Source: a virus
Taxonomy: Duplodnaviria; Heunggongvirae; Uroviricota; Caudoviricetes
IMG/VR virus record: IMGVR_UViG_2671180753_000008
DNA: 6,703 bases
Direction: 5' to 3' (one strand)
The position numbers were made by a program, and so were the translations under genes. Position 1 is the first letter of the stretch. The number at the start of each line of letters is the position of its first letter. Below the pieces are notes generated by a model, which had not been told where the DNA came from, did not search any database, and saw nothing but the letters and a program-made list of their open reading frames with translations. This document shows positions 200-850 of this stretch, one piece after another.

Positions 200-392
200 G
201 GTTCTTTCCACCATCTGAAAAATAATTCTTTAAAATACCTGACATGTAATACAGAAAAAACACAAAACCATACCTTAAATAAAAACCTGATTATCAAGCA
301 GATATGCATGGATAAACTACAAGACGAGATATAAACCACCCTGCATTTAAATAAACAATAAACAACATCAGAAAAATAATTCTGCTCTATGG

Positions 393-419
393 TTTACATT
401 CAAAAATATCATTTATACT
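393..419 (+). promoter_or_regulatory. Possible sigma70 promoter for the 460-795 ORF (TTTACA, 15 bp spacer, TATACT)
   Basis: -35-like TTTACA at 393-398 and -10-like TATACT at 414-419, about 40 nt upstream of the ATG at 460. Spacer is suboptimal, and AT-rich DNA yields many chance -10-like hexamers. Confidence 0.2.
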
Positions 420-459
420 TTTCAGAACATCACCAGCAAGGCATAAACAAGGAAACTAA

Positions 460-795
460 ATGAAGTGGATTGTGATTGATACAGTTATCCAGCCATCATG
501 CGGAATATCTTTTTCAGTCATATGGAGTAAAATAAAATTAATAATCTGGTATCAATCGGATGCTTTCTTACCTCCTGAAAGTATATTTACACTGACTCAC
601 ACAGGCATCATGCTCAATAACAAAGTGCTACCTGTAACCATTTACAACGTAGTACCATTCAATAAAACATTCTGGAATTCAATCAAAAATAGCCAGGAAT
701 GCCCTACAAATACAGATAACGTATTGAATGAATGCTTTAATAACCGTTGCACTCTGCAAATATGTCCTTATGGACTAAAACAACAAAGTCCATAA
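460..795 (+). CDS. Hypothetical 111-aa protein in an AT-rich island (moron-like cargo gene)
   Basis: Open frame of 111 codons in very AT-rich DNA, where stops are frequent. AAGGA Shine-Dalgarno about 6 nt before the ATG. Cys-rich C-terminus ([26 protein letters not shown]). No family recognised. Confidence 0.35.
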
Positions 796-814
796 GGAGT
801 TTACTCACATCTGA

Positions 815-850
815 CAAAATCAATATAAACAGCCCCTCCGGAGAGGGGCT
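815..850 (-). terminator. Hairpin plus U-rich tract at the outer edge of repeat R copy 1 (minus-strand orientation)
   Basis: AGCCCCTC-CGGA-GAGGGGCT is a perfect 8-bp stem (831-850). On the minus strand it is followed by GTTTATATTGATTTTG. The U-tract is interrupted, so this is weaker than the copies at 2214 and 3949. Confidence 0.35.

Follow-up and report, generated by a model that had tools for sequence, protein, structure and literature searches.

The stretch of DNA analysed here, hereafter the window, comprises 6,703 nucleotides of a Caudoviricetes record (IMGVR_UViG_2671180753_000008). Judged by its sequence, the AT-rich block at positions 201-830 is the cassette of iraL, an already known gene whose product in the window is identical at 110 of 111 residues to IraL of Escherichia coli CFT073. 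We consider it very likely that this block is self-contained cargo carried by a lambdoid prophage, now decayed, in a Shigella genome that is most probably S. sonnei, and that the encoded protein blocks RssB. The finding that IraL lets a prophage remnant reset the general stress response of its host has been published, and hence the window adds nothing new on the role of the gene. What is added here are the exact borders of the cassette, the occurrence of diverged cassettes in the same late-region stretch of other prophages, and corrected labels for both neighbours. In addition, a Cys4 tail that is absent from the solved structure appears to be the most conserved feature of the family, which provides a modest, testable lead on RssB anti-adaptors.

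The AT-rich island and its reading frame

A block of about 600 bp much richer in A+T than its surroundings had been described at 215-830 in a sequence-only reading. This description holds, since positions 201-830 contain 32.2% G+C against 48-57% around them, namely 48.4% in the whole window, 52.7% in the DUF1737 stub on the left (70-200) and 57.0% in the first copy of a repeat, repeat R, on the right (831-1009). Within the island, the ORF has a G+C content of 34.5% and the part upstream of it 29.3%. Alignment to relatives lacking iraL places the borders at about 200 and 831, close to the limits first proposed. On the left, homology with phages JLK-2012 and phi296, and with the second R copy of the window, reaches as far as the DUF1737/nanS-p start codon (around 200); on the right, it restarts at a hairpin (around 831). 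Between these borders, the three iraL-less junctions hold unrelated sequence, much shorter than the 630-bp island. Composition and alignment together thus delimit the iraL island, or moron cassette, at 201-830 as a feature without strand.

Of 5426 complete E. coli genomes, 1446 carry the island at 90% identity or more, with one to three copies each and nearly always on the chromosome; among the matches listed, the gene is annotated as IraM. Positions 1-1009 of the window, including a junction with IS600, are 100% identical to several S. sonnei chromosomes, such as that of strain 53G (HE616528), and positions 70-1009 (940 bp) are about 99.4% identical at the nucleotide level to E. coli CFT073. 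The window is a scaffold with single-N joins, and its first 1009 bases match finished genomes exactly.

The iraL coding sequence lies at 460-795 on the plus strand (ATG start, 111 aa plus stop codon) and represents the Shigella allele with S74, as assigned from the ORF, the family match and the identity to CFT073. A Shine-Dalgarno sequence, AAGGA, is read at 449-453 (+), 6 nt 5' of the ATG. The frame is divergent from a minus-strand gene with its start codon at 197-199, and its strand is opposite to that of the Q-like gene, the methylase and the tRNAs. Hence, the initial description of a 111-aa ORF opposed to the late genes, with a strong Shine-Dalgarno and a Cys-rich C-terminus, proved correct on each point. 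Besides C14, the protein contains C81, C92, C97 and C102, and these four fall within the last 31 residues. Two small ORFs in the island, at 185-334 (+) and 136-339 (-), had no support and were set aside.

Identity of the protein

The protein had not been recognised from the letters alone; homology and structure comparisons now assign it to IraL, of the RssB anti-adaptor family. It matches NCBIfam NF007393 ('anti-adapter protein IraM') with 162 bits, above the cut-off of 121, over residues 1-110. The only residue that differs from CFT073 IraL is number 74, Leu in CFT073 and Ser in the window, and the coding sequences differ at 2 of 336 nt. Amino acid identity to K-12 IraM is about 61%. The CFT073 gene, annotated there as IraM, is c1429, described by Hryckowian et al. 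2014 (mBio 5:e01043-14; PMC4045071), who assign a gene to the IraL subtype when its entire coding region is at least 95% identical to CFT073 iraL at the nucleotide level, a range into which the window copy falls. In the same study, no overlap was reported between iraL and iraM matches (PMC4045071).

The exact window protein is deposited as 'MULTISPECIES: anti-adapter protein IraM [Shigella]' and is found on at least 999 contigs, many of them S. sonnei chromosomes; it is indexed in 4016 blocks. By these records, it is the common Shigella allele. Among the 15 closer relatives aligned, residue 74 is Leu in 13 and Ile in two, and it is Ser in the Shigella allele. Across the wider family the position varies (T, S, L and others), with Ser or Thr in many distant members. 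It adjoins residue 75, which in IraM contacts RssB. Our local Pfam copy (PF11183.13) returned no real match for either IraL or K-12 IraM. We attribute this miss to a version effect, because the precomputed PF11183.15 (PmrD) does match IraL homologues.

Promoter and transcript

The 5' end of iraL published for CFT073 (ACATCACCAGCAAGG, ACATCACCAGCAAGGCATAAACAAGGAAAC, ACATCACCAGCAAGGCATAAACAAGG), which was mapped by 5' RACE on mid-log RNA (PMC4045071), matches the window at 427. By homology, transcription is placed as starting at this position on the plus strand, leaving a leader of 33 nt up to the ATG. A probable promoter at 393-419 (+), with hexamers assigned by eye, consists of a -35 element TTTACA (393-398), a 15-nt spacer and a -10 element TATACT (414-419), the latter ending 7 nt 5' of the start. 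With this conserved RACE-mapped start and its TATACT element, the earlier suggestion that the ORF has a promoter of its own is confirmed. From -100 to the ATG, window and CFT073 differ only at 426 (-1) and at 457, in the spacer between the Shine-Dalgarno and the ATG; for the iraL subtype, the upstream region, mapped start included, has to be at least 96% identical to that of CFT073, and the window lies within this limit.

A consensus promoter scan did not report the RACE-supported iraL promoter, because its spacer is 15 nt long and the scanner allows 16-18 nt. The two plus-strand matches that the scan returned (352-380 and 511-538) were discounted, as 3.1 are expected by chance. When the regions upstream of iraL and K-12 iraM were aligned, no convincing homology was found. 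A PhoP-box-like half-site, GGTTTA, is visible by eye at 391-396, and the second half-site is missing. Regarding expression in CFT073, iraL (c1429) mRNA is 1.6 log2 more abundant at 37 C than at 23 C, and more IraL protein is present in a fur mutant. It is a reasonable guess that the AT-rich island might be subject to H-NS-type silencing.

Anti-adaptor function and fold

Previous work showed that IraL co-purifies with RssB. In two-hybrid assays, IraL bound only the N-terminal receiver domain of RssB, whereas IraM bound both domains (PMC4045071). In log-phase CFT073, RpoS had a half-life of about 5 min, which fell to about 2.5 min when iraL was deleted, and log-phase RpoS levels were lowered by deletion in both CFT073 and S. 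sonnei (PMC4045071). In the same report, iraL together with 100 bp of upstream DNA raised RpoS in K-12 (PMC4045071). The near-identity of the window copy to these published genes strongly suggests that it would stabilise RpoS in the same manner.

The crystal structure 8TWD shows IraM(1-78) on RssB, bridging both RssB domains and covering the alpha4-beta5-alpha5 face, the site of RpoS binding. An AF2 model built on 16 close homologues reached a pLDDT of 59.9 and was discarded; an alignment of 41 sequences was used instead and gave a pLDDT of 87.5 for window IraL. This model superposes on IraM (8twd_A, Foldseek) with a target-normalised TM of 0.90 and an rmsd of 1.2 A over 78 columns. It can likewise be superposed on the PmrD structures 4HN7 (target-normalised TM of 0.73), 2JSO and 2RQX. 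Eleven of the 15 residues with which IraM contacts RssB in 8TWD are identical in window IraL (I4, I6, C14, F18, W22, K26, W30, I42, I61, Y62 and P66), and the changed contacts, from IraM to window IraL, are T13S, H63N, I64V and L75I.

Altogether, we propose that a sigma-70-type promoter would start iraL transcription at 427 and that the AAGGA ribosome-binding site in the leader would then direct synthesis of the 111-aa IraL. The protein is predicted to comprise a PmrD-like domain made of a beta-barrel and a helix (residues 1-78), followed by the Cys4 tail. IraL would bind RssB, the adaptor that hands RpoS (sigma-S) to the ClpXP protease; with RssB blocked, RpoS would remain stable even in exponential growth without added stress.

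Alternative readings

A non-coding AT-rich spacer, with a 111-codon ORF present by chance, deserves practically no credence. AT-rich DNA holds few GC-rich codons, and the local Pfam copy gave no significant match, both of which would fit such a spacer. However, an ATG-initiated ORF of at least 111 codons was obtained in only 3 of 2000 shuffles of the island, and dN/dS in the iraL frame is 0.146 when compared with K-12 iraM, 0.188 for a variant of 75% identity and 0.183 for one from E. albertii. The ORF is thus coding, as dN/dS amounts to 0.15-0.19 against three diverged homologues. The sequence-only reading had named two outcomes that would speak against a gene, an absence of homologues with a conserved frame, and codon and periodicity statistics typical of non-coding DNA; the same frame is present in at least six enterobacterial genera, and the dN/dS values are those of a coding sequence. 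The NCBIfam match exceeds its cut-off, the structure of a paralogue has been solved, and genetics and biochemistry are in print. Frame conservation, together with what has been published on the protein, already refutes a chance ORF. A coding gene could still be a decaying, non-functional remnant, inactivated by L74S or by the two SNPs in the promoter region. Numerous IS600 copies have invaded the prophage, one of them interrupts the adjacent gene, and no lysis module is left; moreover, Ser74 replaces the hydrophobic Leu or Ile of all 15 closer relatives aligned, and the SNPs fall at -1 and between the Shine-Dalgarno and the ATG. Yet the ORF, the Shine-Dalgarno and the promoter hexamers are intact, the exact protein is kept on at least 999 contigs, including many S. 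sonnei chromosomes, and many distant members carry Ser or Thr at position 74. The drop in log-phase RpoS upon iraL deletion in S. sonnei (PMC4045071) suggests, by analogy, that the window allele is functional too, and selection is also indicated by an island that has been kept amid a decaying phage. We regard inactivation as very unlikely.

A functional gene might, on the other hand, be IraM proper, dependent on PhoP/PhoQ and induced by Mg2+ starvation, rather than the log-phase IraL. PGAP and NCBIfam label every family member IraM, and the two proteins have the same fold and most RssB-contact residues in common. This assignment is nonetheless highly improbable, given an identity of 99% to CFT073 IraL versus about 61% to K-12 IraM, the separation of iraL and iraM matches in the published survey (PMC4045071), and upstream DNA that is near-identical to that of CFT073 iraL and does not align convincingly to that of K-12 iraM. 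The genomic context is also a different one, with K-12 iraM located beside e14. It is still less probable, indeed extremely so, that IraL is a PmrD-type connector acting on another response regulator, e.g., PmrA, with RssB not being its target. The fold matches to 4HN7 (TM 0.73), 2JSO and 2RQX and the precomputed Pfam assignment of the homologues, PF11183 PmrD, are what such a connector would show; but identity to PmrD is just 14-21%, and RssB binding and RssB-dependent effects have been published for a protein identical at 110 of 111 residues. To our knowledge, PmrD is also devoid of the Cys4 tail. Hence, we retain the assignment of the window gene as iraL, encoding an RssB anti-adaptor.

The Cys4 tail

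A profile search against 1.84 billion representative proteins retrieved 97 matches at E<=0.001, of which 48 at E<=1e-10. An alignment was built from the window protein and 40 relatives with identities down to 20%; 39 of these relatives are full-length matches from this search. These sequences originate from Escherichia, Salmonella, Citrobacter, Enterobacter, Kosakonia, Cronobacter and metagenome sources. The only invariant columns among the 41 sequences are W72, C81, C97 and C102, and C92 and P103 are each found in 40 of 41. The positions that contact RssB are far more variable than the cysteines in these 41 members. In the window, the codons of the motif C81-x10-C92-x4-C97-x4-C102-P-Y-G span 700-774 (+), as defined from the family alignment. 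From the alignment we derived the family pattern C-x(8-17)-C-x(4-6)-C-x4-C-P, to which window IraL conforms. Across the sequences aligned, the four C-terminal cysteines stand out as the most conserved feature of the IraM/IraL family.

In the paper describing 8TWD, residues 79-107 were called less conserved and flexible, and truncated IraM still bound RssB; these residues had been removed for 8TWD because they were proteolytically unstable. In our AF2 model (41-sequence alignment), the tail reaches a pLDDT of 71-77, which does not point to disorder. When the tail alone was compared with PDB sequences, only chance-level matches were obtained (E>=0.57), with no solved relative carrying the Cys4 motif, and the literature searched contained no discussion of the cysteines of the IraL/IraM family. 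We tentatively suggest, while holding it rather doubtful, that the tail (approximately residues 79-105), far from being a dispensable flexible extension, is a Cys4 module that binds metal or responds to redox state and so governs how stable or how active IraL and IraM are in vivo. A structural zinc site would be the simplest reading of the tail, and a metal or redox switch is possible. If true, the anti-adaptor would sense zinc, iron or oxidation post-translationally, on top of its transcriptional control.

Neighbouring elements

The right end of an IS600 element occupies 1-69 (+) and cuts the DUF1737 gene, as delimited by a repeat and by the start of the CFT073 homology, which begins at 70. 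Positions 1-77 are repeated at 1960-2036 and 3695-3771, PGAP labels the element 'IS3-like element IS600 family transposase', and the IS600/DUF1737 junction is also present in S. sonnei chromosomes. The interrupted gene, at 26-199 (or 214) on the minus strand, is an N-terminal remnant of a nanS-p-type esterase gene. It had been taken for a YdfR-like gene, a label that does not stand: the match is to Pfam DUF1737, with 57.2 bits. The stub is annotated with a 57-aa product in S. sonnei and as a partial DUF1737 pseudogene in CFT073; in phages JLK-2012 and phi296, its alignment falls on the 5' end of yjhS/NanS. In CFT073, the YdfR-family gene is a separate gene, two positions past DUF1737.

On the other side, the first copy of repeat R (821-1010, minus strand) matches the full Rfam model RF02076 (positions 1-206), and two more copies are located at 2210-2399 and 3945-4134. 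The three, which score 133, 123.6 and 122.5 bits where the gathering score is 47, measure 164-190 nt and are interleaved with IS600 fragments. By these matches, repeat R is the prophage sRNA STnc100. A terminator scan placed the intrinsic terminator of this sRNA at 830-851 (-), a hairpin with a 9-bp stem, a 4-nt loop and a T-run on the minus strand. It is common to the iraL-less junctions and hence belongs to R rather than to the island. As this sRNA hairpin lies 34 nt past the iraL stop codon, the iraL and sRNA genes converge. It is the sole hairpin detected by the scan downstream of iraL, and no U-run follows it on the iraL strand. In a preprint of 2026, STnc100 is linked to PasD, a group of sRNAs from Stx-type prophages.

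Prophage context and moron status

Read on the minus strand from right to left, the full window contains the end of a Q-like antiterminator gene, a 65-aa ORF, a 352-aa N6/N4 DNA methyltransferase gene (4654-5712, minus strand), tRNA-Met, tRNA-Arg(tcg), tRNA-Arg(tct), the R copies among IS600 fragments, the island and the IS600-cut DUF1737 gene. This order of Q-like gene, methylase, tRNAs, STnc100 sRNA, island and nanS-p-type stub is, by gene content, that of the late region of lambdoid and Stx-type prophages.

Diverged cassettes occupy comparable sites elsewhere. One of 75% identity lies between stxB, which it directly follows, and nanS-p in an Stx prophage, and is found twice in one genome; the DNA upstream of this cassette, promoter hexamers included, is homologous to that of the window. 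Another, of 65% identity, lies between Q/ORF6N genes and DUF3927/nanS-p in an E. albertii prophage, on the opposite strand, as in the Stx prophage. Four GenBank phage records carry the island beside holin, YdfR, lysozyme, Rz and Bor, and a distant family member of Cronobacter has ordinary chromosomal surroundings. In the window, the phage has decayed around the island, with the DUF1737 stub cut by IS600 and the lysis genes gone, and the cassette is intact. This pattern fits selection for a benefit to the host. The proposal that the block is a moron is supported by its own promoter, opposite strand, AT-rich composition and position in a lambdoid late region, as well as by the short unrelated sequence found at the same junction in JLK-2012, phi296 and the second R copy. 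On the evidence available, the iraL cassette is a phage moron.

Comparison with known systems

The closest described system is CFT073 iraL (c1429), which has the same promoter, transcription start and Shine-Dalgarno, and likewise lies between a DUF1737 stub and the STnc100 sRNA in a lambdoid late region. Over 940 bp, the differences amount to L74S, one synonymous change and four non-coding SNPs. Unlike in CFT073, the DUF1737 stub of the window is cut by IS600, and the subsequent holin, YdfR and lysis genes are missing. K-12 IraM (YcgW) shares with window IraL the NF007393 match, the PmrD-like fold, 11 of 15 contacts and the Cys4 tail, and it is likewise encoded by a horizontally acquired AT-rich gene adjoining prophage DNA. 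Its amino acid identity is about 61%, its upstream region has no convincing homology to that of the window, and it is induced through PhoP/PhoQ at low Mg2+. Salmonella RssC and other enterobacterial members have the same domain layout together with W72, C81, C92, C97 and C102, but their identity is 20-50% and some, such as the Cronobacter copy, are not phage-borne. PmrD (4HN7, 2JSO, 2RQX) is a similar small beta-barrel that docks on the receiver domain of a response regulator, whereas its target is PmrA, not RssB.

The classical lambdoid morons are bor and lom of lambda, and stx in Stx phages. The iraL cassette resembles them as late-region cargo of odd composition that is expressed from the prophage for the benefit of the host. 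In contrast to these genes, iraL encodes a cytoplasmic regulator of host proteolysis and no surface protein or toxin. In the related phage vB_EcoS-640R1, bor itself lies a few genes away from the island.

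Conservation of IraM/IraL proteins

Across 41 aligned sequences (the window IraL and 40 relatives) with identities down to 20%, no feature of the IraM/IraL family is more conserved than a Cys4 motif, C-x10-C-x4-C-x4-CPYG in the window protein. In the window, this motif is encoded on the plus strand by codons 81 to 105 of iraL (C81 to G105, positions 700-774). The sole crystal structure, that of IraM bound to RssB, was obtained without the motif, and we found no discussion of it in the papers searched. Residue 74 varies within the family. Codon 74 of the Shigella allele (window position 680) is TCA, coding for Ser, and the corresponding residue is Leu in the IraL of uropathogenic E. 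coli CFT073, in K-12 IraM and in 11 other close relatives, and Ile in two. It lies in the C-terminal helix and adjoins residue 75, a contact residue. Since distant relatives often carry Thr or Ser at this position, the Ser74 change in Shigella IraL is probably tolerated.

The Pfam assignments of these proteins differ between sources. The precomputed annotations, based on PF11183.15, place all IraM/IraL homologues in the PmrD family, whereas our Pfam-A scan with PF11183.13 detected neither IraL nor K-12 IraM. This discrepancy is a version difference, and any statement that IraL or IraM has no Pfam hit should be read with the PF11183 version in mind.

An IraL-like gene in an Stx prophage

In an Stx prophage (GCA_039832115.1), stxB and nanS-p directly flank an IraL-like gene that is 75% identical and runs on the opposite strand. 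This genome carries two copies, at 3206-3541 of locus L014 and 3173-3508 of locus L015. The DNA upstream of the gene is homologous to that upstream of iraL in the window, including the promoter hexamers. Of note, iraL was reported to be under-represented in EHEC/STEC (Hryckowian et al., 2014; PMC4045071).

Repeat R and the assembly of the window

Judged from its matches to Rfam RF02076, the element that the sequence-only reading had named repeat R is the prophage sRNA STnc100. Three full-length copies lie on the minus strand, at 821-1010 (133 bits), 2210-2399 (122.5 bits) and 3945-4134 (123.6 bits), each ending in a hairpin and a T-run. The iraL island comes after copy 1 only; copies 2 and 3 lead into a different 180-bp segment, with IS600 beyond it.

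Single Ns occur at 1010 and 3056, exactly where unique sequence joins 5'-truncated IS600 copies. In addition, an N-run at 4439-4515 is flanked by two identical 76-nt stretches (4363-4438 and 4516-4591), each containing most of a tRNA-Met gene. Finished S. sonnei genomes continue from the first R copy straight into sequence equal to window 2399-3057. Altogether, the Ns at the IS600 joins, the N-run between duplicates and the different continuation of R in S. sonnei indicate that the window is a scaffold. The R/IS600 triplication may in part have been created by the assembly.

Other open reading frames

The Q-like region (6179-6703, minus strand) includes a 122-aa ORF (6285-6653) with matches to a DnaJ-like CxxCxGxG zinc finger. 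The region of this ORF is about 98% identical to the 3' part of an S. sonnei Q-type gene encoding a 284-aa Antiterm protein (PF03589), and the alignment contains an 8-base length difference. The window Q gene may be frameshifted, or may simply run off the window end. Between R copy 2 and an IS600 fragment there is another AT-rich stretch, with 35-44% G+C, that holds a 117-aa ORF (2632-2985, minus strand). The ORF has no significant match in Pfam or NCBIfam. This DNA likewise comes after R in S. sonnei and CFT073.
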